Source: an uncultured Alphaproteobacteria bacterium
GTDB lineage: Bacteria; Pseudomonadota; Alphaproteobacteria; RF32; CAG-239
Length of the DNA stretch: 64,000 nt
Assembly: GCA_934271465.1 (NCBI GenBank)
Contig: CAKQRQ010000007.1
Location: forward strand, 14,858 to 78,857
Direction: 5' to 3'
Shown: positions 13,641 through 38,999 of the stretch, piece by piece
Numbering within the stretch: the stretch's first letter is position 1
Layout: the number at the start of each line of letters is the position of its first letter
The notes under the pieces: model-generated
What the model saw: only the letters and a program-made list of their open reading frames with translations
What the model was told of the DNA's origin: nothing
The model's database searches: none
Translations under genes and position numbers: made by a program

Positions 13641-14423
13641 ATGAAAAAAATGGAAAAGTCTACATTTATCGGTTTTATCGGTGGTATTGCGGCAGTCGGC
13701 GTCGGTATGGCGCTCAAAGGAGCAGACCCGCATGCCCTCATCAATCCGGCCGCCTTTTTGATTATTTTTGCTGGAACAGCCGCAGCAATTTTCAATGCTT
13801 TCCCGATGAAAGAAATTAAACACTTTCCCAAACTCCTAAAAATCATATTTGTCGGGCGAGAATTTACTCCGAAACAAGAAATTTTGGAATTATTTGTTTC
13901 TGTCGCCAAAGCCGCCAAGCAAGAAGGCGTTATGGCGATTGAAAAGCGCGCCAACGAAGTCGCCGACCCTTTCATTCGCTCCACAATGACCATGGTTGCC
14001 GACGGATTTAATGCAGACTTCATTTACGGCGTCGTCGATTCCGAAATCAAACAAATGGAAGAACGGCATCGGGCCGGGGCTCAAATCTTTGCTCAATGCG
14101 GCATGTATGCACCGACTTTAGGCGTTTTGGGTGCGGTTATCGGCCTGATTGCGGCCTTGGGAAACTTGAGCGATATTGACCAGCTCGGCCACTCCATTGC
14201 CGCGGCGTTCGTCGCCACTTTGCTTGGTATTTTCACAGGTTATGTCTGCTGGCACCCATTTGCCAATAAACTCAAACAAATCAACGCCGAAGAAGTCGAA
14301 ATGAAACGTATGGTTTTGGAAGGCGCTCTGGCTCTTCAGGAAGGAGCCTCGTCCATTGCGATTGAATCCCGCCTTCAAGCCTTTATCCCGTTGTCTGAAC
14401 GCAAATCTCTGCGCGATGCCTAA
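13641..14423 (+). CDS. motA: Flagellar motor stator protein MotA (MotA/TolQ/ExbB proton-channel family)
   Basis: It has 4 TM helices, a cytoplasmic loop and a C-terminal plug region. It sits immediately upstream of a MotB homologue, and a flagellin gene elsewhere in the window supports flagellar function. Confidence 0.75.
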   Translation: MKKMEKSTFIGFIGGIAAVGVGMALKGADPHALINPAAFLIIFAGTAAAIFNAFPMKEIKHFPKLLKIIFVGREFTPKQEILELFVSVAKAAKQEGVMAIEKRANEVADPFIRSTMTMVADGFNADFIYGVVDSEIKQMEERHRAGAQIFAQCGMYAPTLGVLGAVIGLIAALGNLSDIDQLGHSIAAAFVATLLGIFTGYVCWHPFANKLKQINAEEVEMKRMVLEGALALQEGASSIAIESRLQAFIPLSERKSLRDA

Positions 14424-14448
14424 CCCGTTTTGAGCAAAGGACACACCT

Positions 14449-15114
14449 ATGGTTAAGAAAAAACCGGATCAACCTCATCACGAAGAGCATGCCGACGAAA
14501 CATGGCTCATTCCCTACTCAGACTTGCTGACTCTGTTGTTGGCGCTGTTTATCGTGTTATTTGCCTCATCCAGTCTGGACAAAAGCAAAGCTGCCCAAAT
14601 TCAATACGCTCTGGCGGCCGCTTTCAGCAACGGCACAGGCTCGGGCGACGGTAACGGCTCTATCATCAATTTTATGAACGACGCCCAAGATTTGAATCTG
14701 GAAGACGAAGGAATTATCATCTCTTCCGATGCTCAAGGCGCCACCTTGGAAATGACCTCTATCAATTTATTTGATAAAGGATCGGTTATCCTCAAACCCG
14801 AGGCTTTCCCGATTATTAAAAAGATTTCCCAGCTGTTGAATTCCAATAAATATAAGAAATATAGAATAGTGGTTGAAGGCCACACCGACGACACAAATGA
14901 ATCCGACGTTCTCCCCTCCAACTGGGAACTTTCCGGAGCTCGTGCCGGAGCGGTTGTCCGAGCAATGATTGCCAATGAAATGGATGTCAACCGATTCAAG
15001 GCGGTCGGTCTGGCTGAAATCTCACCGGCCTACCCCAACAAGAATCCTTACGGCGAACCCATTCCGGAAAACAGAATCAAAAACCGCCGAGTTATTGTCC
15101 GTATTGAGTTTTAA
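14449..15114 (+). CDS. motB: Flagellar motor protein MotB (OmpA-like peptidoglycan-binding domain)
   Basis: The MotB N-terminal signature is WLIPYSDLLTLLLALFIVLFA. A C-terminal OmpA-like domain is present (GHTDDTNESDVLPSNWELSGARAGAVVRAM). Confidence 0.8.
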   Translation: MVKKKPDQPHHEEHADETWLIPYSDLLTLLLALFIVLFASSSLDKSKAAQIQYALAAAFSNGTGSGDGNGSIINFMNDAQDLNLEDEGIIISSDAQGATLEMTSINLFDKGSVILKPEAFPIIKKISQLLNSNKYKKYRIVVEGHTDDTNESDVLPSNWELSGARAGAVVRAMIANEMDVNRFKAVGLAEISPAYPNKNPYGEPIPENRIKNRRVIVRIEF

Positions 15115-17133: not shown

Positions 17134-17448
17134 TTAAATAATCTCATATTGTCTTTCAATAATTCCGCATAACCGGAACAAAGAAAAGCCCCCTGCGGCA
17201 ACCATCCATACAGAATAAAGCACCAACCAAAATCCGCCAAGTTGCCTTTCAAAGAACAAATCAACGGAAAAAAAGAATAATCCGCTCCCTACACTCATAT
17301 GAAAGAGAGAGAAAACATCAAACAGGCGATGCCAGGAAAAGTCCCTTTTGACAGCCGCAATCAGCAGAAAAATCACCAACAGAACAATTGCCGGAATTCC
17401 GACCAGAGCCACAAACAGCCCGAAATTAGAAAGATACAAATTTTCCAT
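17134..17448 (-). CDS. Small hypothetical membrane protein
   Basis: It is 104 aa with three hydrophobic helices and no recognised motif. Confidence 0.3.
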   Translation of the reverse strand: MENLYLSNFGLFVALVGIPAIVLLVIFLLIAAVKRDFSWHRLFDVFSLFHMSVGSGLFFFSVDLFFERQLGGFWLVLYSVWMVAAGGFSLFRLCGIIERQYEII

Positions 17449-17541: not shown

Positions 17542-19233
17542 TTAATCGCACGGCTCCGTAAAACTTTTTTTAAGCCCGTTTACCGTCACAATCGGCGCAT
17601 CAGGATTGACTGTCGTTAAAAATTTTCCGTCGGAAAAATTTTCAACCCCAGATATATCCTCTGACGCTTTATCTTTTGTACACCACATAATAAAGTTCGT
17701 AACACCGCCATATGGGTTTTCAGAATTAAAGCTAAAAACACTGTTCATAGAACTAAAAGTCAAATCTTTCAAATTAATAATCGTTACATCACGCCCATCT
17801 TCTGAAACAATAGCAACAACACCCACAGCCCTTTTGCTGCCGTCATAATCCTCGGCTTTTCCAAAAGTCTTGTCCTCATACATCACATCTCCAACTTTAG
17901 GCATTGTCCCATTCAGATCAAGATTCAACCTTAAAGAAAGTCTGATGACGCTGGAATAATTGTTCTTAAAATGGGTTGTCCTGTGACCATTTCCCGCATT
18001 AAAGCGCCAAGAACTACTTGAAGCGTTTTCAGAAGATGTCCAATAATATTGATTTTTAAAAGCCTCTGCCTCAACACCTTTAGCGGAAAGCTTATTCAAT
18101 GCCGCATTAATCAGATTCTTGTTATCGCCGTTGGCCCCTGTCGAACCTGCACCATCAATCATTTGTGTTATGTTTGTTCCGTAAAACTCCATCCACTCAC
18201 CGATTGACGGCAAATACCATTTTCCTTGGCCAAAATCTCCTGCCATGTCGCCAACATAAAACTGCATTGCCGCATAAGCGGCTAAAGCTTTTTCGCCAAG
18301 CTGAGCAACAACAGCTTTTGTATTCGCTTGACCATTATACAAACCATCTGGCCTTAATCCTGAGCCGCCGACAGATGCCGTTTTAACACCATCCACAAGC
18401 CCAACAACTCCATAAATATTCTTACCACCACCGGCAATCATTCCAACATTAGCAATCGATACATTATCCGTATGTGTTACAATTCCTGCCAATACTGTAT
18501 CTACTCCACCACTCAAATTAATTCGAACATTTCTAATTTTTGCCGACTTAGTCACCCATATTGCATCCAATTCATCAGCAATTTGACTTGACATATAAAT
18601 CGAAACATTTTCAATAACTGCGTTTGTTCCCTCAAGCCTGAGAGCTCGACAATAATCTTTATTATCATTTTGTATAATTACAACTTGACGCAAGCTCATA
18701 TTTTTACCATTAGAATAAATTGAATGAGCAAAAAGTTCTTCCGTTGCGCGATTTTTAAGCACTATATTTTCAAACGTTACACTATCGGCATTAGCAAATA
18801 AACCGTCCGTCTTAAGCACGTGACCGCCGCCGTTAATTATAACAGAAGAACCTCTAAATGTAAAAGAACTATTAAACACAACATCTTCCGCCAACACAAT
18901 TTTTGCATTATTGGTATTCAATAATTTTTTAAATTCATCAATCGTCGTGCTCTGCGTCACTTTAGTATAACCTTGCGCAACAAGCTCATCTACATTGTCC
19001 GTCAGAGTCACGCTGTCCGACAAATCAGCATAATCCAAATCCCCGCAGAAAACAGTATTATCATCTTTGATATTAAACGGGCACGGGAGCACATCTTTTT
19101 CAAAACAAGAGCATTGAGTGCGGGTCTGGGTATAGCCCAGTTCAGCACAACTTGGACGCTGCAAACAATCGGTTGAAGCGTAAGTATTTGAAATTACACA
19201 AAGTAAAAAAAGCAAAATAAAACCGTGTTTCAT
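17542..19233 (-). CDS. Secreted Cys-rich surface protein, paralog 1. It has a signal peptide, a Cys-rich N-module, a beta-helix-like repeat region, a DUF1566/Lcl-like W-x-L-P-S-x-x-E-W module and a C-terminal KxGDVMY...FAVSEDG module.
   Basis: The first ~70 aa are near-identical to the 27389..29275 ORF. The motifs GDFGQGKWYLPSIGEW and KVGDVMYEDK...GVVAIVSEDGRDVTIINLKDLTFSS are shared with that paralog. Repeated N-x-x-I-x-N segments suggest a parallel beta-helix. Confidence 0.7.
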   Translation of the reverse strand: MKHGFILLFLLCVISNTYASTDCLQRPSCAELGYTQTRTQCSCFEKDVLPCPFNIKDDNTVFCGDLDYADLSDSVTLTDNVDELVAQGYTKVTQSTTIDEFKKLLNTNNAKIVLAEDVVFNSSFTFRGSSVIINGGGHVLKTDGLFANADSVTFENIVLKNRATEELFAHSIYSNGKNMSLRQVVIIQNDNKDYCRALRLEGTNAVIENVSIYMSSQIADELDAIWVTKSAKIRNVRINLSGGVDTVLAGIVTHTDNVSIANVGMIAGGGKNIYGVVGLVDGVKTASVGGSGLRPDGLYNGQANTKAVVAQLGEKALAAYAAMQFYVGDMAGDFGQGKWYLPSIGEWMEFYGTNITQMIDGAGSTGANGDNKNLINAALNKLSAKGVEAEAFKNQYYWTSSENASSSSWRFNAGNGHRTTHFKNNYSSVIRLSLRLNLDLNGTMPKVGDVMYEDKTFGKAEDYDGSKRAVGVVAIVSEDGRDVTIINLKDLTFSSMNSVFSFNSENPYGGVTNFIMWCTKDKASEDISGVENFSDGKFLTTVNPDAPIVTVNGLKKSFTEPCD

Positions 19234-19450
19234 AAGATAAACCCCTTGGTTGACACATCGTTTCTAGCGTTTAAACCAACGTTTAAACGCTATAGTCATT
19301 TGCAAAAGATTTTGAAAAATGCACTTTTTAAGAGAATCGATAACACGTTGAAAAATAACAAAAAATTAAAATTATTGCTTTTTTAATAATTGGCTGATAT
19401 ACTAAAAATAATAGAGCGTTTAAACGTTGGTTTAAATGCTCTATTTTGTG
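19234..19450. promoter_or_regulatory. Candidate invertible promoter element, copy 1 (coordinates +/-1). Two 28 bp dif-like sites (11 bp arm, 6 bp spacer, 11 bp arm) lie in inverted orientation around a sigma70 promoter.
   Basis: Site a (~19264..19291) is TAGCGTTTAAA-CCAACG-TTTAAACGCTA. Site b (~19414..19443) is AGAGCGTTTAAA-CGTTGG-TTTAAATGCTCT. The arms are palindromic and the spacers are reverse-complementary. Between them, on the + strand, lies TTGCTT-17 nt-TGaTATACT (an extended -10), which points away from the minus-strand gene. Confidence 0.55.
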
Positions 19451-19552
19451 GTTAAAATGTTTTTGTTCAATTTCAATGAGGTAAGACTTAAAACATCATC
19501 AAAATTCACTCCTACGTTGTATAAATTAAGTCCAAAAACCAAACATAGGCAT

Positions 19553-19650
19553 CATCAAACCCAAGCGTAAACCTGCCCTCCCTTTTGTTATCCTCAAACC
19601 CGAGCGTAAGCCATTTCTCTCTTCCGTCATTCTCGTGCCCGAGCGTAAGC
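19553..19650. repeat. Three copies of an 11 bp motif CC[AC]AGCGTAA[AG]C at ~39 bp spacing, plus an imperfect palindrome (cattctcgtg...cacgggaatc)
   Basis: The three copies occur in aaacccaagcgtaaacc, aaacccgagcgtaagcc and gtgcccgagcgtaagcg. The region is non-coding, with no ORF of 60 aa or more. Confidence 0.4.
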
Positions 19651-23372: not shown

Positions 23373-23447
23373 TGGGGTGTCGCCAAGTGGTAAGGCATCG
23401 GCTTTTGGTGCCGACATTCGTTGGTTCGAATCCAGCCACCCCAGCCA
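23373..23447 (+). tRNA. tRNA-Gln (TTG)
   Basis: The sequence TGGGGTGTCGCCAAGTGGTAAGGCATCGGCTTTTGGTGCCGACATTCGTTGGTTCGAATCCAGCCACCCCAGCCA has a U1-A72 pair, anticodon loop CTTTTGGT (UUG) and an encoded CCA. Confidence 0.9.
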
Positions 23448-23570
23448 CAGTTCAAAAATCGTCAGAAATGGCGATTTTTTCTTTATAAATCAAGTGTTTA
23501 AGCCAGTTCAAAGATTGAGCACTAAATATACATTACACCGGATAATCTTCGAACTACTTCTATCAAAAAT
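23441..23570. repeat. attL-like direct repeat. It covers the 3' end of tRNA-Gln plus ~125 bp downstream and is repeated at 25611..25740.
   Basis: It has about 75% identity over ~130 bp to 25611..25740. Shared segments include ccagccaYagttcaaaaatcg...gattttttctttataaatcaa...atcttcgaactactt. Confidence 0.65.
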
Positions 23571-23703
23571 TTAGCACAATCAAGGTGTTATGAAAATTGC
23601 TTCTTCCTTTTCTTAGTATTCAAAAGAGATCTTATTTTTGTTGCATTAAAAATTTTTAAAACTAATATAGGTTTATATTAAACCAAAAATAAAGGAACTA
23701 TAA

Positions 23704-24540
23704 ATGCCAGGAAAAACAATACAAATATTTTTACCAGATGGAAATCCTAAAGGTGTTAAAAAAGCTTCAATAACTACTGATAAAGTGGAAGTAATTCAAA
23801 TACCAAGAGCCTCCCTTTCTGAAAACAATAAATTGTTGGCGTTTAATGGTGTTTATATTTTAGTTGACAGTCTCAAAGTTGAAAAACCTGAAATTTATAT
23901 AGGTAAAGGTGATGTTAAAAGCAGGACATATTCTCACGATAACAAAAAAGATTTTTGGAATATGCTTTTTGCCATCAGATTAAAAGATGAAACCGGATTC
24001 AATGATGCTCATAACAGCTACCTTGAATACTACTTCGTAAAAAAATCTCATGATCTTAATCAAGCTATCATGAATGAAAACAAACAACTCCCAAAATGTC
24101 CTAATCTCACAGAAGAAATTCTTTCTGAATTATCCTATTATATTCAAACAATTGAAATTCTTTTATCAACATTAGGATTAAAATGTTTTCAGCCCTTGGA
24201 AAATCATGAGAAATCAGAAAAAGATATTTTTGTATGCACTGATAAATATAATAACATCGGTAAAGGGGAATATACTGAAGAAGGATTTTTATTATATAAA
24301 GGTTCCATCTGTAAACTAGAATTGCATCCAGGAACTGATAAGCTATCTCAACGAGATGAAATGATTGCTTCCGGATTATTGAAAAAACAAGGTGGCCATT
24401 ACATTTTGCAAGAAAATAAACTCTTTGCATCCGTATCTTCCGCAGCCGCTATTGTATTAGGTAGAAGAGCCAATGGTTGGCTAGAATGGAAAAACAGCGA
24501 AGGCAAAACTCTTGACGAATTAGAAAGAAAACATTCTTAA
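23704..24540 (+). CDS. GIY-YIG family nuclease with a C-terminal DUF4357-like domain
   Basis: NGVYILVD is followed 14 aa later by EIYIGKGDVKSRTYSH, giving the GIY...YIG core with a following Arg. Downstream acidic and Asn residues fit the motif. A ~60 aa C-terminal domain (ILQENKLFASVSSAAAIVLGRRANGWLEW) is of the type usually fused to such nucleases. Confidence 0.6.
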   Translation: MPGKTIQIFLPDGNPKGVKKASITTDKVEVIQIPRASLSENNKLLAFNGVYILVDSLKVEKPEIYIGKGDVKSRTYSHDNKKDFWNMLFAIRLKDETGFNDAHNSYLEYYFVKKSHDLNQAIMNENKQLPKCPNLTEEILSELSYYIQTIEILLSTLGLKCFQPLENHEKSEKDIFVCTDKYNNIGKGEYTEEGFLLYKGSICKLELHPGTDKLSQRDEMIASGLLKKQGGHYILQENKLFASVSSAAAIVLGRRANGWLEWKNSEGKTLDELERKHS

Positions 24541-24614
24541 GTTCAATATAAAGTGGATTTTATTGCCAAATTTTGTTATAAATGATTATATAACTGCCAT
24601 ATCTATTTTGGTCA

Positions 24615-25454
24615 TCAATAGTTTTTCTTAATCTTTTCAAAAAAAATAAGAGCTTCATCGCTAAGACCAACATTCTTTATATTATGAACAAATTTGAGAC
24701 CAGCATTAAATATTGAATCATCTTTTTTATAAAAATGTTGTAGCAACATATACATATAACGTGGTTCAATTATTTGTTGACCATCAAAATACTTACCACA
24801 GGTAATATGGTAAATTGAACTAGCAACAGCATCTGCAAGGGTTAATAAAACTTCATCTTCTTTTTCTTTAGTATAAATATTTTCTTCTTTAATATTACTA
24901 AGATAATATTTCCATTTTTCTTCTTTTTGCTTATCTCTTCTTACCTTATTGATGTAATGCTTAAATCCTTCCAATGATATAGATTTACTATTTTCAATAA
25001 TAAACAAAGTTTTATCTGGATCAATTTTATTGTAATAAATATATTTACTTATCCTTTCAAAAAGAAAAATAAGATTTTTATGATAATAACTTGTTATGTT
25101 TTTTGGATCATAAGCAAGTTCTCCTTTTTCATCTCTAAGTGTTCTTTTATTTGATATTGTAGCAAATGCTGTAAAATTTGTATTTTTGGATATTGTTTTA
25201 AGGTAAAATAACTTATCATAGTGCTTACTCATATCTGTAAAATGCAATTTTTTAAGTCCTAAAACAGATTTAATGTACGTCAGTTGTCCTTTAATATTTT
25301 CTATTTCTTTCTTCTCAACAAATACGGCACTAATATTTAAAAAATCTTCAGCACCATATCCTTTACCATCAGATAACTTTGTGTATGCGGCATTTCCACT
25401 TTCATCAATTAAAACAAAATATTCATATTGATCATAATTTATTACTTCGGTCAT
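24615..25454 (-). CDS. DUF3800-like protein
   Basis: The N-terminal YEYFVLIDESGN matches the [FY]-x-D-E-S-G signature characteristic of DUF3800. Its size is typical for that family. Confidence 0.5.
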   Translation of the reverse strand: MTEVINYDQYEYFVLIDESGNAAYTKLSDGKGYGAEDFLNISAVFVEKKEIENIKGQLTYIKSVLGLKKLHFTDMSKHYDKLFYLKTISKNTNFTAFATISNKRTLRDEKGELAYDPKNITSYYHKNLIFLFERISKYIYYNKIDPDKTLFIIENSKSISLEGFKHYINKVRRDKQKEEKWKYYLSNIKEENIYTKEKEDEVLLTLADAVASSIYHITCGKYFDGQQIIEPRYMYMLLQHFYKKDDSIFNAGLKFVHNIKNVGLSDEALIFFEKIKKNY

Positions 25455-25610
25455 TATTATTCCTTTATTATTATTTTCAGCAGTTACTTAGTAACTTAGG
25501 ATTTTATTTATCAAAACGCAAGCACCTAGCTTATTTTAAATTAACCCCTGTTTCTTGATACCCTGAAGTCAAAAAAATACTCAACCTAGTCCGCGGATTG
25601 CGAATTCACT

Positions 25611-25740
25611 CCAGCCATAGTTCAAAAATCGCCATTTTTGACGATTTTTTCTTTATAAATCAACAACTTAACCGAGTCCGAAAATTTATATCATTACAGG
25701 CTTAAATACGAATCATCTTCGAACTACTTTTTATAATATT
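25611..25740. repeat. attR-like direct repeat (partner of 23441..23570)
   Basis: See the left repeat. It includes a hairpin AAAAATCG-ccatttttga-CGATTTTTT whose loop is the reverse complement of the loop in the left copy. Confidence 0.65.
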
Positions 25741-26284
25741 CCTTATTTTTCAATAATTTAATTAAAGCCAACCTTTGGGGATAATCATTTATTCAAAGTC
25801 GGATTTGAAACTTTCTTAAAATGAAAGTTTTGGACATTGGCGACGATTTATTTTGCTGATGAAGAAGGTGTGTTATCAGCACAGGGACTGCCTATCCCGT
25901 CTGTGGCTCGGCTACTCCTATCCCATATCCGCCAGCTTGGACGGCTCCCCTCCTGCGGCTAGCTAATCATCAGCCAGTAAACAGCCTCCTTAAATCTGGA
26001 CAAGGCCTTTACGTGCGAGGAGTTAAAATCAGCACAGTTACCTTTAGTAAGAAGCCTAAACAAAAAGAGAAGTCGAAACCTCTCTTTTATAAAGAAACCT
26101 CCAGCCCTTAAGGGCAAGAGGTCTAAATATCATTTTTAAGTATTGAGATTTACTTTAAGCGGTAAGTCCCTTGTTCACCTTCGACTTTTTCAAGCAGATA
26201 AACTCATTATATAATATGCAGCATAACTTAAAGAACTAAATAATATATTTGAAAGTTATACAAACCTTACTAAATTACCGACAT

Positions 26285-26580
26285 TTTGAACTTTAGGATA
26301 TATACTTTCTTACATAGAACAAAACTTTTTATCTACAAGCGCACATCTTTTGAATATATCTCAAAGTTATATATTCTAAACATTTAGAATATATCCAAAG
26401 ATTATAAACAACTATATTTCATATTAATACATTTCAGAATATAGCTGTAAAGATAAAATTTATTATATACTTTAGCCTATATTATAGATACTTTTATCTA
26501 AAAAACAGCATTTTATAACATACCTGAAAGTTATATAAATAGCACCTTAGAATATATTCAAAAGATGTATATTAAAATTT
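26285..26580. repeat. Array of iteron-like short repeats. Class A is TTTAGAATATA(T). Class B is TTTTATCTA-N-A[AC]AG.
   Basis: There are at least 6 class A copies and 2 class B copies in about 300 bp of non-coding, ~25% GC DNA. Examples are catttagaatatatccaaag, cttttgaatatatctcaaag, tcagaatatagctgtaaag and ccttagaatatattcaaaag. Confidence 0.55.
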
Positions 26581-26771
26581 TTGAATAGAGAAGCTAAAAA
26601 GATTGAAAAGTTAATTTATTCAACTTAAGATTTTAATTATAGGAATCTTAACAATACAGCATTGTAAAATCACATCACAAAAAAAATAAAAATATGGAAA
26701 CATTTATAATGAAAGAAAGGTAATATTATGGGACATCAACTTTTTTAAAGGGTGGAGGGAATACAAAATTT

Positions 26772-27197
26772 ATGCTTGATATTTGGGCTAAAAGAGGAAT
26801 TATTTCATTACTAAAAGAGGCATATGAACGGGGCACTATTCTTTCAGGATTAAGTGCCGGTGCAAATTGTTGGTTTGATTGCTTTAGCTCAGACTCATTT
26901 TTAAGCGATGCGGATAAACAAGATTTCAATATTGCAAAAGAAAAATTAGCCATACTCAATGGACTGGGATATCTTAAAGGTGCGTTTTGTCCTCATTATT
27001 TGTTTGAAGCTTATAGACGCCCGGCATTTCTTTATCAAATTCAAAGGTTGAATATTACTGCTTATGGTGTAGATAATAATGTAGCTTTAGTCTTTGTTAA
27101 TGAAAAATTGAATAAAGTTATAAAAAGCCAACCTTTGGCTAAAGCGTTTAAAATTATATGTGAAAACGGAAAAATAATAGAAAAAGAAATTTATTAA
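26772..27197 (+). pseudogene. N-terminally truncated peptidase S51 (dipeptidase E-like) gene fragment
   Basis: ILSGLSAGANCWFD matches the S51 nucleophile elbow (G-x-S-A-G). It is only 141 aa against ~230 aa for intact S51 enzymes. A stop lies immediately upstream, and the fragment is flanked by repeat arrays. Confidence 0.5.
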
Positions 27198-27249
27198 TAG
27201 GGAATGCCTGTTAAAATTATCCCATAAGATTTTTTCAAATATCACCTTT

Positions 27250-27365
27250 CAGAAAAGATATACACTTTAGATTATACAACAAACCCTTTTATCTATACAG
27301 TTACAACTTTAGAATACGTCCTAAGGTTATATATATTAGACCTTTAGGTCATATCTTTTATATTC
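27250..27365. repeat. Second cluster of the same iteron-like repeats, on the other side of the S51 fragment
   Basis: It contains cactttagattataca, ccttttatctatacag and caactttagaatacgtcctaagg, matching repeat classes A and B. Confidence 0.5.
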
Positions 27366-27388: not shown

Positions 27389-29275
27389 TCATTCAAATTC
27401 ACAACTACACCGACCGGATTTTTGAAGTGGTGGAACAATTTCGTTGATTTGCGTTATGCGCTGATAAGGTGCTAATGCCCACCTTATCTTTTGTGTCGTA
27501 TTACCGTAAGGATTTTCCGGATCAAAATTATCAGCCTTGTCCGTAGAGCTGAATGTCAAATCTCGCAACCCGATAATCTTAACCGTTTTACCGTCCTCTG
27601 AAACAGCAAAAACAATTCCGGCGGGCGTTCTGCTTCCGTCATACTTATCTGCCGAACCATAGGACTTATCCGTATACATCACGTCACCGATTTTAGGAAA
27701 TTCAGCCAATTGAGGGACATTTTGAACGATCAAAGCCACGCGGACATAGGCTGTTCCATGTTTCCATAGTTGCGGGTTTTCTCCCCATTTCAAATTTATC
27801 AATTTAATATAGTTAGAACCATCATAAGTTGTAAAATAAAGATGACTAGGCGTTGACTTATCCAAATCAAACGGTTGAGCTATTTCGCTGTCTGCAGCCT
27901 GTAATATACTCAATGAATTATTAATCCATGAAATATTGTTTCCAACCATTCCTTTTGTAAAACTCGTCATTTTAACTTTATTCGCGCCATAAATATCTGC
28001 CCATTCGCCGATGGCTGGAATATACCACTTTCCCTGTCCGAAATCTCCTGTCTTCTTCCCGACATAAAATTGGCTTGCAGCATAGGGCACAAGAGCATTT
28101 TTACCGATTTTTTCAACATTAAGATAAGTTACCCCATACCCATCATACAATTCTTTGGCATCCAGACACAATTCCTGACAATTTCCCAAAACACATTGCC
28201 CGCTTCCCAATTCATATCCTTCTACACAAGTTTTGCAGGAACAATCGTCATTATACGTCACGCAATTTTGTTGATAACACTGATCAAATTCACACGGACA
28301 GCCGCATGCCGATAAGAATCCGCCAATAAACTCCGACACATTCCACGCCAAAACACCGTCAACCATTCCGCCTCCATTGCGCCAACTTGTGACTTTTGAA
28401 GCTCCACCATACGGATTATCCATATCAAAATTATTAAGTGTATTATAATGACTAAAAGTCAAATTTCTTAATCCGATAAATTTAACATCTTTACCGCTGT
28501 CGGATACTGCAAAGATAATCCCGATAGGCGTTTTAGAGCTGTTATAAGCATCCGCCGAGCTAAAAATTTTATCCAAATATATCACATCGCCGATTTTAGG
28601 TTTTGTATCAACGATAGACAAGCCGCTCACACCTGAAACAACTCGCATATACCTTCCGTGCTCAAAGCTCCATTCCATTGAACGACGTCCTGTTTCGGGA
28701 TAAAATAACCATGTTCTTTGGCTGTCATTCAATGTTGATGACCAATACCCGCCAGTTTCCCATTCATCAGCTGCGGCGCCTTTGCTCTGCAGTGCCGAAA
28801 TAGAGCTATTAATCAGAGCTATATTTTCGCCGATTGCGCCTGATTTCTCCATTGCCGCTGTCATTTTATTAACATCTGTTCCATACAAATCCATCCATTC
28901 TCCGATAGACGGCAGCCACCATTTGCCTTGACCGAAATCCCCGCCTTTGTCGCCGATATAAAACAGGCTTGCCGCATAGGGTGCTAACATTCGGCTGCCC
29001 CAGCTTTCAACATACAACTTCGTATTGATTTCGCCATTATACAAAGACGATGTATCTTTGCACCTGCCTTTGCAATTCAAATCCCCGCAGAAAACAGTAT
29101 TATCATCTTTGATATTAAATGGGCAGGGAAGGACATCTTTTTCAAAACATGTGCATTGTTTACGCGTCTGAACATAGCCTAATTCTTCACAACTCGGTTT
29201 TTGCAAACAATCGGTTGAAGCGTAAGTGTTTGAAATTACACAAAATAAAAAAAGTAAAATAAAACCATATTTCAT
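27389..29275 (-). CDS. Secreted Cys-rich surface protein, paralog 2. It has a signal peptide and a Cys-rich N-module, then two tandem [DUF1566/Lcl-like W-x-[LI]-P-[SA]-I-G-E-W + KIGDV[MI]Y...FAVS[ED][DS]G] units separated by a Cys-rich EGF-like linker. I moved the start to MKYGFILLF.
   Basis: The N-terminal 70 aa are near-identical to paralog 1 (STDCLQ[KR]PSC[AE]ELGY...CPFNIKDDNTVFCGDL). GDFGQGKW[WY][LI]P[SA]IGEW occurs twice. PKIGDV[IM]Y.DK...G[IV][IV]FAVS[DE][SD]GK[DT]VK[FI]IGLR[ND]LTFS occurs twice. An RBS (aagggg) lies before the second Met. Confidence 0.7.
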   Translation of the reverse strand: MKYGFILLFLFCVISNTYASTDCLQKPSCEELGYVQTRKQCTCFEKDVLPCPFNIKDDNTVFCGDLNCKGRCKDTSSLYNGEINTKLYVESWGSRMLAPYAASLFYIGDKGGDFGQGKWWLPSIGEWMDLYGTDVNKMTAAMEKSGAIGENIALINSSISALQSKGAAADEWETGGYWSSTLNDSQRTWLFYPETGRRSMEWSFEHGRYMRVVSGVSGLSIVDTKPKIGDVIYLDKIFSSADAYNSSKTPIGIIFAVSDSGKDVKFIGLRNLTFSHYNTLNNFDMDNPYGGASKVTSWRNGGGMVDGVLAWNVSEFIGGFLSACGCPCEFDQCYQQNCVTYNDDCSCKTCVEGYELGSGQCVLGNCQELCLDAKELYDGYGVTYLNVEKIGKNALVPYAASQFYVGKKTGDFGQGKWYIPAIGEWADIYGANKVKMTSFTKGMVGNNISWINNSLSILQAADSEIAQPFDLDKSTPSHLYFTTYDGSNYIKLINLKWGENPQLWKHGTAYVRVALIVQNVPQLAEFPKIGDVMYTDKSYGSADKYDGSRTPAGIVFAVSEDGKTVKIIGLRDLTFSSTDKADNFDPENPYGNTTQKIRWALAPYQRITQINEIVPPLQKSGRCSCEFE

Positions 29276-29490
29276 GAGATAAGCCCCTTGGTTGACGCAT
29301 CGTTTATAGCGTTTAAACCAACGTTTAAACGCTATAGTCATGTACAAGGGATTTTGAAAAATGCACTTTTTAAGAGAATTGATAACGCATTGAAAAATAA
29401 TAAAAAATTAAAATTATTGCTTTTTTAATAATTGGCTGGTATACTCAAAACAATAGAGCGTTTAAACGTTGGTTTAAACGCTCTATTGCG
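29276..29490. promoter_or_regulatory. Candidate invertible promoter element, copy 2, about 90% identical to 19234..19450
   Basis: Site a is ATAGCGTTTAAA-CCAACG-TTTAAACGCTAT and site b is AGAGCGTTTAAA-CGTTGG-TTTAAACGCTCT. Between them on the + strand is TTGCTT-17-TGgTATACT, again pointing away from the minus-strand gene. Confidence 0.55.
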
Positions 29491-33324: not shown

Positions 33325-34062
33325 CTATTCTCCCGCCATTTCGGCTCTGATAGCCGTGTCATCGATTTCACGCGACAAAATGGTTGAAAATTCCGACATA
33401 AATGCTTCCAATTTTTTGGCGTATCTATCCAAATCGGAAGAAATTTTGTTATAAGCCACAACCGCCGGAATGGCCGCAATCAAGCCGAATGCCGTTGTAA
33501 ACAAAGCCTCGGCAATACCGGGAGCCATCGCCGACAAAGAGTTGCTTTGGGTCGCCGCAATGGCATTAAAGCTGTTGATGATTCCCCAGACTGTTCCGAA
33601 CAAACCGACCAACGGCGCAACCGACCCTGTCGAGGCCAAAAAGCCAAGCCTTGTTTCCAAAGAATCCAAATCTTTGTCCATAGACACCATCATGGCTTTT
33701 TCAATACGCTGCTGAAGAGATACCCCGCGCAGGCCTCTGTCCGTCTTTGATTTCAAGATATTCGTGCGTTTCCACTCTTTCATAGCCGCCACAAACATAT
33801 TAGCCATCGGCTCATTAGGATTGGCGCCCAGAGAATCATACAGTCTGTCCAACGACCCGCCGGACCAGAATTTTTCCTCAAACTTGGCAGTTTTCTTTTT
33901 GAGCTGGCGCAAAATACCAAATTTTTCAAAAATAATCGCCCATGACCAAACCGATGCAAAAATCAAACCGATTAAAACGACTTTTGTGACCATATCCGAT
34001 GCCCACAACAGCCCCCACATCGACGCATTGCTGGCTACTTCCTGTAAAGCTTCCGTTTCCAT
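33325..34062 (-). CDS. tolQ: TolQ (MotA/TolQ/ExbB family)
   Basis: It has three TM helices and the TolQ/ExbB conserved C-terminal region (APLVGLFGTVWGIINSF). It lies within the ybgC-tolQRA context. Confidence 0.85.
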   Translation of the reverse strand: METEALQEVASNASMWGLLWASDMVTKVVLIGLIFASVWSWAIIFEKFGILRQLKKKTAKFEEKFWSGGSLDRLYDSLGANPNEPMANMFVAAMKEWKRTNILKSKTDRGLRGVSLQQRIEKAMMVSMDKDLDSLETRLGFLASTGSVAPLVGLFGTVWGIINSFNAIAATQSNSLSAMAPGIAEALFTTAFGLIAAIPAVVAYNKISSDLDRYAKKLEAFMSEFSTILSREIDDTAIRAEMAGE

Positions 34063-37055: not shown

Positions 37056-38999
37056 TTACCCAAACAACGCGAGCACGCTCTGGGCGGAATTGGCCGCAAG
37101 TGAAAGCGCGTTGGTTGCAAGCTGTTGACGGGTTTGGAGCGCCAAATAATTTGCGGATTCCTCGTTCATATCAGCCAAAACTAAATTATCCGCGCCTGTT
37201 TCAAGAACATCTGTCAAAGACTCGGTAAAGTTTTGCCGCGTTTGGATTATGCTGTAATTATTCCCGAGTTCTGATTGAAACGTGCGGATTTTGTTAACAG
37301 CAGCTAAAAGTTCTTGAATTGAGTTGGCAATATCGCCCTGCGTTGTCCATTCAGCTTTGGTCAGTCCTAACGCGGCGGAACTCATATCCTTTCCTTGGAC
37401 TGTTAGTTTGTTGTTTCGGGTTTCGTTGAAGACAACATCAAGTTTCTCATTCTTCAAAAGATTAACACCCTGATATGATGAATCATTAATTAATTTATCA
37501 TATTGCTCAAAGGCTTTATTATATTGGTCGGCATAATCCGTAACTGAAGAAACCTCTGTTTCTTTTTGATATCCTTTAATCCCCTGTTCAGCTTTGGCTT
37601 GAAGAGCATTAACCATTTCATCCAAGAAATCCAGCGATGGCGCAACCTCACCGGCCTCTTCCGCAAATCCGGTCGGAAGATTATTATTGAGCATCGTGTT
37701 GTCGCTAACATTGGTGTCTGTTTTATAAACCTTTCCGTTCCAACCAAACTTTGAACCCGCAACAGCGTTGAAAGTAAGACGATTGTTCTCGTTCCAAAAT
37801 AATCGTCTAGAGCTTTCTATATTCATCTGAACATCAGAAGAATTAAGATTTACCATTAAAGGAGTATACGTTGCAACAAAATTCTCAAGAGTTTTCATAT
37901 TCAATGATGCTTTATCATTTAAGGTTAACTCTCCATAAACAAAACCGCCATCTCCCCCTGTCAGCACCATGTTCAAAGAGCTATTTTCCAGAAATTCCGT
38001 TTTTGAATCGCTAAATCCTCGTTCCGCTGCAACAATATTCAATTGCGCATTGGCAGATACCTTCATGGCCGATAGACCTATAGCTCTTGAGGCTTTTTGG
38101 AGCATATAGATATTCAAATTTCCTGTAACTTGAACATCAGTTCCATTTAAAAGCCCGTGAGACAGAATTTTTTTATCGTCATTTCTTCCTTTTTCATAAA
38201 TAAAATTATTGCCAGTGATGAGCGTATTATTTCCTAAATATATTCCTACGGAACTTATCCCTTTTTGATTATAATCTATTTGTTCCATATTGTCTATCAT
38301 CAGATCAATGCTATTAATCGTAATATTAGACTTGAGGGATAGGTTAACAATTGAACTTCCAACACTCGTTCTCGTCACTCCGCGGATTGAGATATCAGAA
38401 ATAACTAAATCATCAGCTTGAGTCACAATGCCGCTTGTTATATTCAATTTCTCTAAATCAATGTCGATGCTCGAGAACTTGCCGGTATCCGGTTCTTCAA
38501 CGCCGTAATAGCCCACGCCGACAAGGTTTTGTCCGGCTTTTAGGCTGATTTGTCCTTCGGCTTGGATATTGCCATAAATGACGATGTTTCCTTGAACACC
38601 GCTGTCCAAAGCGGCTTTGAGTTCCGCCCAATTACTTGCAACCGCCGCAACGTTTTCTTGACTTGCAAACCATTCTTTGCTCGGGATTTTGGTTGCTGCT
38701 AGGGCTTCCGTTGCTATGGCCGAGGCTTGTTCGAGGAACGACACGCCGCTTGTCAGGCCTTGCGTTGCCGCTTGAATGGTTTGGATCCCCTGTCCCATCG
38801 CGTCTAATAAGGCGTCTAAATCCGAGGCTCTGTTTGTGAGGGCTCTGGCTTGGTAATAACTTGACGCATTATCAATAGCGGAATTGACTTTCTTGCCGGT
38901 TGAAAGCCTTTCCTGCGTCGTGTTCATTTGTTTGGAGATGTTTTTGAGGCTGTTTAAGTTACTCCGCATTGACGCCGTCAGCGTGATACTCTTTACCAT
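37056..38999 (-). CDS. fliC: Flagellin (647 aa) with conserved N- and C-terminal helical domains and a large central variable domain
   Basis: The N-terminus TQERLSTGKKVNSAIDNASSYYQARALTNRASDLDALLDAMGQGIQTIQAA matches the flagellin D0/D1 region. The C-terminus ALQTRQQLATNALSLAANSAQSVLALFG matches the flagellin C-terminal helix. Confidence 0.7.
   Translation of the reverse strand: MVKSITLTASMRSNLNSLKNISKQMNTTQERLSTGKKVNSAIDNASSYYQARALTNRASDLDALLDAMGQGIQTIQAATQGLTSGVSFLEQASAIATEALAATKIPSKEWFASQENVAAVASNWAELKAALDSGVQGNIVIYGNIQAEGQISLKAGQNLVGVGYYGVEEPDTGKFSSIDIDLEKLNITSGIVTQADDLVISDISIRGVTRTSVGSSIVNLSLKSNITINSIDLMIDNMEQIDYNQKGISSVGIYLGNNTLITGNNFIYEKGRNDDKKILSHGLLNGTDVQVTGNLNIYMLQKASRAIGLSAMKVSANAQLNIVAAERGFSDSKTEFLENSSLNMVLTGGDGGFVYGELTLNDKASLNMKTLENFVATYTPLMVNLNSSDVQMNIESSRRLFWNENNRLTFNAVAGSKFGWNGKVYKTDTNVSDNTMLNNNLPTGFAEEAGEVAPSLDFLDEMVNALQAKAEQGIKGYQKETEVSSVTDYADQYNKAFEQYDKLINDSSYQGVNLLKNEKLDVVFNETRNNKLTVQGKDMSSAALGLTKAEWTTQGDIANSIQELLAAVNKIRTFQSELGNNYSIIQTRQNFTESLTDVLETGADNLVLADMNEESANYLALQTRQQLATNALSLAANSAQSVLALFG

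Follow-up and report, generated by a model that had tools for sequence, protein, structure and literature searches.

We analyzed a 64,000-nucleotide (nt) stretch of DNA, here called the window, from an uncultured member of the Alphaproteobacteria (RF32; CAG-239). The window comprises positions 14,858 to 78,857 of the forward strand of contig CAKQRQ010000007.1 in assembly GCA_934271465.1 and carries two open reading frames (ORFs), P1 (17542-19233, 563 amino acids) and P2 (27389-29275, 628 amino acids). We propose with fair confidence, from sequence comparisons and structure models, that P1 and P2 are phase-variable, exported, binding or adhesin-like proteins. They share a signal peptide and a Cys-rich head, carry a divergent relative of the Lcl_C (DUF1566) domain with a regular partner module, and lie downstream of candidate invertible promoters. 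Behind the head, the whole P1 passenger has its homologue in the central part of flagellins that belong to the same lineage. An earlier note, made from the sequence without database searches, had described the two ORFs as paralogues that probably form variable adhesins or surface antigens, in keeping with switchable promoters upstream, and we take up its individual claims below.

Proteins were compared by BLASTP, tblastn, and phmmer and were scanned with Pfam and NCBIfam profiles at the E<=1 level. Models were made with AlphaFold2, and structures were compared with the PDB by Foldseek. The Pfam gathering cut-offs were 34.9 bits for Lcl_C (PF07603) and 24.3 bits for Pectate_lyase_5 (PF20585). 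The genome scan covered 185,579 species genomes, the protein scan covered 1.84 billion representatives, and the viral scan covered 2.9 million contigs. Signal peptides were called by a rule of thumb that combined n, h, and c regions, the residues at -3 and -1, a lipobox check, and Kyte-Doolittle hydropathy.

P1 and P2 share a signal peptide and a Cys-rich head

Both ORFs are present in the ORF list on the minus strand. The P2 ORF is open to a TTG at 29347 (27389-29347), and its ATG at 29275, which has an AAGGGG Shine-Dalgarno-like motif on its 5' side, aligns with the P1 start. The two genes are organized as follows.

17542-19233, minus strand: P1 gene, 563 residues plus stop; signal peptide, Cys-rich head, predicted beta-helix, Lcl_C-like domain, C-module, and tail
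19174-19233, minus strand: P1 predicted signal peptide, residues 1-20, MKHGFILLFLLCVISNTYA
19033-19173, minus strand: P1 Cys-rich head, residues 21-67
18343-19032, minus strand: P1 predicted right-handed beta-helix region, residues 68-297
17914-18342, minus strand: P1 Lcl_C/DUF1566-like domain, residues 298-440, with G-x-x-NT, FGQGKWYLPSIGEW, and YWTSSE...VR
17674-17913, minus strand: P1 C-module, residues 441-520, with PKVGDVMYEDKT...VGVVAIVSEDG...IINLKDLTFSS...NPYG
17545-17673, minus strand: P1 tail, residues 521-563, with homology to the segment by which flagellins return to their D1 helices
27389-29275, minus strand: P2 gene, 628 residues plus stop; signal peptide, head, Lcl-like domain plus C-module, Cys linker, Lcl-like domain plus C-module, and short Cys tail
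29060-29275, minus strand: P2 predicted signal peptide and head, residues 1-72, with 8 Cys in residues 21-72
28376-29044, minus strand: P2 first Lcl-like domain plus C-module, residues 78-300; Lcl_C match with E 6.4e-3 over residues 114-213
28151-28375, minus strand: P2 Cys-rich linker, residues 301-375, with 11 Cys; CGCPCEFDQC...CSCKTCVEGYELGSGQC
27476-28150, minus strand: P2 second Lcl-like domain plus C-module, residues 376-600, 41% identical to P1 298-517

BLASTP aligned residues 1 to 67 of the two proteins with 88% identity (E 3e-39), after which they diverge, as the earlier note had described. P1 298-517 matched P2 78-298 with 43% identity (E 2e-59) and P2 376-599 with 41% identity (E 2e-46), which defines a two-part module of about 220 residues that is present once in P1 and twice in P2. 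By these alignment statistics, the resemblance between the two proteins is far beyond chance. A tblastn search of the window returned no third copy of the module, and the view of P1 and P2 as a modular paralogous pair with one and two module copies was upheld. The relationship is also visible in the DNA, where 19032-19331 and 29074-29373 form a repeat with 88% identity over 300 nt that runs from the head through the signal peptide into the control region upstream.

The P1 N terminus consists of MKHGFILLFLLCVISNTYA followed by S, which gives a predicted mature start of STDC. It has recognizable n, h, and c regions, T-Y-A at positions -3 to -1, and a mean Kyte-Doolittle hydropathy of 2.4 (MK-HGFILLFLLCVISN-TYA/S), and it satisfies the rule of thumb for Sec export and signal peptidase I cleavage. 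No lipobox was found in the N terminus of either protein. The proposed secretion signal was thus supported at this level, and the signal peptide pattern and the head are both kept across head-type homologues.

The P1 head has 6 Cys in 47 mature residues, with the motif DC-x3-PSC-x-ELGY ... CPF ... FCG, and this Cys-rich head is also kept in distant head-type homologues. The head had no Pfam or NCBIfam match, a homology search with the head by itself returned two fragments and was uninformative, and the confidence of the P1 head model was low (predicted local distance difference test [pLDDT] score, 45-65). The Cys-rich linker of P2 (11 Cys in 75 residues) has similar counterparts in homologues. 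The earlier note had called it epidermal growth factor (EGF)-like, a label that we drop, as Pfam gave no match other than Lcl_C at E<=1. A protein identical to P1 (P0001) is encoded on human-gut metagenome contigs, and the 90% cluster of P2 has 35 members, MDD7313818.1 among them.

The module begins with a divergent Lcl_C-like domain

The C-terminal domain (CTD) of Lcl from Legionella pneumophila is a trimeric C-type-lectin-like glycosaminoglycan-binding domain (PMC11162425). The Lcl_C profile matched P1 with 20.8 bits (E 5e-4) and P2 with 17.2 bits (E 6.4e-3), and the best close-family homologue scored 32.6 bits. The cut-off was passed only by two far larger relatives, P0197 (60.6 bits) and P0201 (56.5 bits). 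At E<=0.01, Lcl_C was matched by 33 of 37 module sequences (best, 5.6e-8) and by 39 of 53 full-length homologues (best, 7e-9). A profile built from the 37 modules matched the sequence of the Lcl-CTD crystal structure (8q4e) with E 0.0035, on the YWSSxE...SW...G...VR strands, and 8q4e was the sole sensible Foldseek match in the PDB for a model of the module (E 0.53, probability 0.51). From these sequence and model comparisons, P1 298-440 appears to be a divergent Lcl_C relative rather than a certified member. The earlier note had inferred a DUF1566/Lcl-like domain from a motif; the relationship stood through consistent matches across the family and the 8q4e profile match, while P1 and P2 themselves lie under the cut-off and give no formally significant hit. 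The Fib_succ_major profile (TIGR02145), which the note had also suggested, gave nothing relevant in the NCBIfam scan at E<=1.

P1 and P2 have the core signature W-Y-L-P-S-x-x-E and Y-W-S-S-x-E ... V-R in common with Lcl-CTD. Lcl is a Sec-dependent extracellular protein of a Gram-negative bacterium and is itself a glycan-binding adhesin (PMC11162425), and Sec-dependent export is likewise predicted for P1 and P2. Unlike Lcl, they lack the collagen-like GXY repeats and the N-terminal amphipathic helix described for it (PMC11162425), and because both the collagen stalk and the helix are missing, P1 and P2 are not Lcl orthologues. Their Lcl-like domain, which scores below the Lcl_C cut-off, is always found with the partner module and the Cys-rich head. 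They also differ in charge: both are acidic rather than cationic, with an overall isoelectric point (pI) of about 5 (8.1, 4.95, and 8.7 for the individual Lcl-like domains). We discarded Lcl-style cationic glycosaminoglycan binding as a model for these proteins because the overall charge does not support it.

The C-module is a regular partner of the Lcl-like domain

The second half of the module, the C-module, has the consensus PK[IV]GDVMY...VG[IV]V..VSEDG...[IV]INLKDLTFSS...NPYG and belongs to no Pfam family. Together with the tail it is rare, and an exhaustive phmmer search found 84 clusters at E<=1e-3 among the 1.84 billion representatives. The weakest of these clusters are proteins of 340 to 390 residues. 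The four that were read in sequence (P0202, P0204, P0205, and P0210) have a signal peptide, a related Cys head (such as NCETKPSCEELGY...CPF..C), the C-module, and then a C-terminal Lcl-like domain, which is the reverse of the domain order in P1 and P2. The hypothetical protein in PDB entry 4eps has VGDYYYADG...GIVCWV at 266-303 and YWSSTE at 448-488 (whole-sequence E 0.0065), and the C-module is weakly like the 4eps segment that precedes its DUF1566-like part. The reversed relatives and the 4eps pattern indicate that the C-module is a habitual partner of DUF1566-like domains in both circular orders. It appears, on these comparisons, to be unannotated rather than unrelated to known proteins. 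The earlier note had called the module novel, which holds in that it has no Pfam family and fails in that it resembles part of 4eps, if weakly, and regularly accompanies Lcl-like domains.

The viral scan found no relative of the module, and we rejected a phage origin on this basis. In the P0202 cluster, several contigs have the member split into a 58-residue head ORF and a 312-residue body ORF, and others have an intact 354-residue ORF. These split ORFs could reflect frameshift-based on/off variation or assembly error.

P1 is predicted to contain a right-handed beta-helix

The AlphaFold2 model of P1, based on an alignment of 53 sequences, had a pLDDT of 89.1 and a predicted template modeling (pTM) score of 0.83. 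It showed regular beta-helix strands at about residues 110-277 (pLDDT >90), a helix-rich alpha/beta domain at 296-437, and, at 445-556, a C-module rich in beta structure that ends in a short helical tail. A separate model of the module (P1 290-563, 274 residues) had a pLDDT of 95.1 and a pTM of 0.91, and therefore the Lcl-like half and the C-module are predicted to form one compact unit.

Foldseek matched the full P1 model most closely to right-handed beta-helix proteins, all of them weak matches (E 0.025 or worse), including the lyase RbmB, a pectin methylesterase, a pectate lyase, the serine-rich repeat protein (SRRP) adhesin of Lactobacillus reuteri, and phage tailspikes. P1 itself has no match to PF20585, the "putative pectate lyase-like adhesive domain," which 22 of the 53 homologues matched at E<=0.01, one of them (P0045) at 28.1 bits and above the cut-off. 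A right-handed parallel beta-helix is thus the fold that the model predicts for P1, and the beta-helix-like region of about 220 residues that the earlier note had placed in P1 and not in P2 is supported by the modeled strands and the Foldseek matches. The binding region of L. reuteri SRRP (PF20585; 5nxk) is likewise a right-handed beta-helix, with an adhesive role in SRRP, and it is PF20585 that homologues of the P1 helix match. P1 differs from it in having no PF20585 score, no serine-rich repeats, and a Gram-negative host, and the Foldseek match to 5nxk has an E value of 0.09 and about 14% identity.

The enzymes among the top Foldseek matches (RbmB, pectin methylesterase, pectate lyase, and tailspike depolymerases) would fit a different function, in which these are polysaccharide-degrading proteins with the P1 beta-helix as the lyase or hydrolase and the Lcl-like domains as carbohydrate-binding modules. 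We consider this improbable. The enzyme-type matches are weak not only in E value but also in template modeling (TM) score (0.2 or less) and identity (about 10%), and the sole beta-helix Pfam match among homologues is the noncatalytic "adhesive" Pectate_lyase_5. P2 and most family members have no beta-helix at all, and neither Pfam nor NCBIfam detected a catalytic family in P1 or P2. Together with a lectin-like domain and a beta-helix of the adhesive type, this lack of a detected catalytic family suggests a binding role.

The P1 passenger is shared with flagellins

P1 74-558 aligned by BLASTP with residues 111-609 of a flagellin, P0003, as one block with 62% identity that includes the P1 tail, and residues 111-609 are precisely the part of P0003 that its conserved helical ends enclose. 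Among the 120 homologues found for P1 in the database, roughly half are flagellins, with the cassette between Flagellin_N and Flagellin_C, and the tail piece matches only flagellins and beta-helix-type head proteins. The P1 module is 61-64% identical to flagellin modules, 57% identical to that of the head-type protein P0002, and 42% and 37% identical to the two P2 modules. P2-type proteins, which make up the majority of the head family, are close to no flagellin.

The genome scan located 79 module loci (L005-L083), nearly all in gut-derived metagenome-assembled genomes (MAGs) labeled Alphaproteobacteria, Azospirillaceae, or Rhodospirillales, and at least 52 of these loci are flagellin genes. 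Single MAGs have many loci (13 in CALXTO bin33, 8 in CAKQNT, 8 in CAKQMD, and 6 in CALXUM), and such large families of cassette-bearing flagellins suggest antigenic or functional diversification of the flagellum. By accession and locus-tag numbering, one MAG has both P2 (MDD7313818.1, PUH03_05670) and a P0003-type flagellin (MDD7313727.1, PUH03_05185). In one MAG, a related flagellin is split into two ORFs.

The Pfam domains Flagellin_N (PF00669) and Flagellin_C (PF00700) are present in P0003 and P0045 and absent from P1 and P2. P1 and P2 thus resemble the outer (D2/D3-type) domains of flagellins in that the whole P1 passenger is homologous to such a region, and they differ in having a Sec signal peptide in place of the N terminus used for type III export. 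Lacking both flagellin domains and the type III export N terminus, they cannot polymerize into filaments. The window has its own flagellin gene.

37056-38999, minus strand: flagellin gene with a different outer domain, 647 residues; Flagellin_N and Flagellin_C present

The 5' end of this gene has 89% DNA identity to the P0003 gene. Its outer domain is unlike the P1/P2 cassette, with no tblastn match, and was found only in flagellins. The sharing of a cassette with Sec-exported proteins is therefore specific, and we rejected the idea that flagellins and secreted proteins share outer domains as a general rule.

Across the alignment of P1 with the flagellin, DNA identity is 65%, third codon positions are 42% identical, and the proteins are about 62-63% identical. 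Because the protein is far more conserved than the third codon positions, the relationship appears to be old and kept by selection, and the low identity along the whole alignment led us to reject recent gene conversion between P1 and a flagellin gene. By homology, many flagellin paralogues of this clade would display the cassette as their outer region, exposed to solvent. Its presence on flagellins is our strongest indication that the P1 and P2 domains work, most likely, outside the cell. A pectate-lyase-like cluster (cluster 35) appears in a published survey of the outer domains of flagellins, which mentions no DUF1566 or lectin domain (PMC11532411). Our literature search found no relevant paper that connects flagellin with DUF1566 or treats DUF1566-type flagellin outer domains.

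This homology raises another possibility, that P1-type proteins are secreted mimics of the flagellar surface, acting, once switched ON, as soluble or surface-bound decoys for anti-flagellar immunoglobulin A (IgA) or flagellotropic phage or as competitors for the ligand to which the flagellum binds. The P1 passenger, tail included, matches the flagellin outer region over its full length and is nearer to flagellins than to head-type proteins, the sharing is specific to this cassette, and phase-variable control fits an interplay of flagellar mimics with immunity or phage. Even so, we judge such mimicry unlikely, since the divergence is old and cross-recognition by antibody or phage is doubtful at 62% protein identity. 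In addition, P2-type proteins are near no flagellin, the module was on none of the viral contigs, and the idea is without experimental support. A broader version, which we regard as speculative and doubtful, is that one adhesive or antigenic cassette travels on two export routes, as part of a type III-exported filament and as free or surface-located Sec-exported proteins with the Cys head and invertible promoters, and that the Sec copies serve as decoys or competitors for any partner, be it secretory IgA, flagellotropic phage, or a host ligand, that recognizes the surface of the flagellum. If true, flagella would be protected or tuned in a manner not described before.

Candidate invertible promoters lie upstream of P1 and P2

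Inverted repeats of 32 to 36 nt flank an AT-rich segment of roughly 100 to 120 nt on the 5' side of each gene.

19266-19440, no strand: P1 inverton, arms 19266-19301 and 19405-19440; inverted repeat I4, 86% complementary
29305-29485, no strand: P2 inverton, arms 29305-29336 and 29454-29485; inverted repeat I5, 94% complementary
19375-19403, plus strand: predicted promoter in the P1 inverton, TTGCTT-N17-(TGa)TATACT, directed away from P1 (OFF)
29417-29445, plus strand: predicted promoter in the P2 inverton, TTGCTT-N17-(TGg)TATACT, directed away from P2 (OFF)

Each arm is itself a near-palindrome (GCGTTTAAAC-CAAC/GTTG-GTTTAAACGC) with a 17-bp stem and a 4-nt asymmetric core. The promoter sequence TTGCTT-N17-TGnTATACT is the best-conserved part of 11 diverged spacers, and an automated promoter scan of the spacer core gave plus-strand sites only. 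In two metagenome contigs, L004 and L099, the homologous segment is directed at the head-type gene, and the protein called on L004 (P0058) begins within the flipped segment. The promoter points away from the gene in every other locus that could be oriented (L001-003, L084, L088, L090-092, L094, L095, L098, and L100-102), which gives 2 loci toward the gene and at least 15 others away from it. These inverted repeats, the conserved promoter, and its opposite orientation in homologous loci support the suggestion that a switchable promoter precedes each gene. In the OFF orientation at P2, the distal arm and a T-run read as a terminator-like hairpin, which would quench outward transcription.

The arrangement is like that of known inverton-controlled systems (the Bacteroides type, Escherichia coli fimS, and the Clostridioides difficile flagellar switch) in that a short promoter segment lies between inverted repeats directly 5' of a surface-type gene, the control region is common to paralogues, and both orientations are seen among homologous loci. 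It differs in its palindromic arms, in its alphaproteobacterial host, and in having no recombinase near P1 or P2 among the ORFs scanned. The inverted-repeat motif was absent, at <=3 mismatches, from the 79 genomic loci of other species, and therefore this type of inverton appears to be confined to a narrow group. Solo palindromic arms also occur, at L086 9109-9132 with no adjoining spacer and at L093 10091-10114 and L096 2675-2698 with a spacer remnant only. They may be free-standing hairpins (terminator-like or like repetitive extragenic palindromic [REP] elements) or decayed switches.

That both promoters point away from their genes in nearly all assemblies, and that a related flagellin is split in one MAG, could also mean that these genes are evolutionary debris, functionless chimeras left by recombination of flagellin genes with an unrelated secreted gene. 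This seems very improbable to us. Independent metagenomes contain identical, intact copies of the ORFs, dozens of head-type clusters keep the cysteines and motifs, and 63% protein identity against 42% identity at third codon positions points to purifying selection.

Proposed role of the P1/P2 family

We propose that P1 and P2 represent a multigene, Sec-exported, disulfide-rich family of uncultured gut Alphaproteobacteria. The signal peptide and the 6-Cys head would serve as a common handle for export, folding, or anchoring, followed by variable passengers that consist of the Lcl_C-like domain and its beta-rich partner module in either order, with an optional beta-helix or Cys linkers. The passenger domains would act outside the cell, where they would be exposed to host and phages, as modules that bind ligands, probably glycans. 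Head-type genes would be transcribed from the promoter in the invertible segment of about 150 bp with stochastic ON/OFF switching, and both genes would be OFF in the window. The comparisons show directly how the proteins are built, how P1 relates to the outer part of flagellins, how large the family is, how the inverted repeats are arranged, and that homologous loci have the promoter in either orientation. From these results we infer export beyond the inner membrane and periplasm, binding, switching within a population, and the role of the head. The presence of the same cassette on the exposed part of flagellins is what suggests extracellular action.

Several observations weigh against this proposal. 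The Lcl_C scores of P1, P2, and the close family lie below the cut-off, and the proteins are acidic where the glycosaminoglycan-binding face of Lcl is cationic. The two loci in the ON orientation belong to different paralogues or strains, and both have a damaged or missing distal arm; switching at one locus in one population is therefore a prediction. Of 15 metagenome contigs that carry arm sequence, 6 end in or at the element, which favors an inverton, but these breaks could come from multicopy repeats rather than from mixed orientation. Pfam detected no recombinase among 27 window ORFs (1-13 kb, beside both genes, and 31-39 kb), and the cognate enzyme may be elsewhere in the genome. Neither P1 nor P2 has a lipobox, an autotransporter domain, or a recognized sorting signal for passage across the outer membrane. 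We found no paper on the P1/P2 family and no experimental study of any member in the literature.

The lack of a recognizable outer membrane translocation signal next to a Sec signal peptide, together with the many cysteines, which suit an oxidizing periplasm, would fit periplasmic or envelope proteins that never reach the surface, such as cell-wall or flagellar-assembly factors. We hold this to be rather unlikely, given that flagellins bear the same cassette in their exposed part and that surface structures are what phase-variable promoters typically control.

Other features of the window

13641-15114: MotA/MotB stator genes
33325-34062: second MotA/ExbB-family gene

These genes, the flagellin gene, and the LptD, SurA, and Mla genes in the window indicate that the host is a flagellated Gram-negative bacterium.

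Downstream of P1, at a distance of 93 nt and with the same orientation, a 104-residue ORF with long hydrophobic stretches (17134-17448, minus strand) is kept together with P1 in L001-L003. It has no Pfam match, was not found beside P2, and probably encodes a membrane protein. Upstream of P1, two tandem 39-nt units (19551-19628, 72% identical) lie in the 500 nt without genes that separate the P1 inverton from glyS; they have no Rfam match, and the only RNA elements that Rfam gave in the window are four tRNAs. Between P1 and P2, an 80-nt direct repeat (23437-23516 and 25607-25686, 79% identical) comes after tRNA-Gln (23373-23447), and its two copies enclose an insert of low GC content (about 0.30) that carries a DUF4357/RAMA-like gene (23704-24540) as well as a DUF3800 gene (24615-25454). 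The region 23373-25686 looks like a small island integrated at a tRNA, and none of its ORFs of >=60 residues is an integrase. Between this region and P2 lies an AT-rich stretch (26240-27333) with the short repeat families D7, D8, I3, and I9. The truncated peptidase S51 ORF next to these repeats, at 26772-27197, is probably a gene remnant because it matches only positions 96-205 of the 206 in the profile.

Significance

Taken singly, the adhesin-like protein secreted by the Sec route, the DUF1566 relative, the beta-helix, and the inverton are all of known kinds. What is new is the way they are combined, along with the conserved Cys-rich head, the module that partners the DUF1566 relative, and the cassette in common with flagellins. 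The head and the DUF1566 partner, both unannotated, could become new domain families. The cassette offers a concrete case of domain traffic between the hypervariable regions of flagellins and ordinary secreted proteins. A lectin-like cassette common to Sec-secreted proteins and the flagellar surface, with up to 13 cassette-bearing loci per MAG, points to flagella as adhesive or antigenically variable organelles in these bacteria. Uncultured gut Alphaproteobacteria are common in nonindustrialized human microbiomes (Hadza and Nepali samples here) and are almost unstudied, and the P1/P2 family would be the first phase-variable exported protein set described for them.

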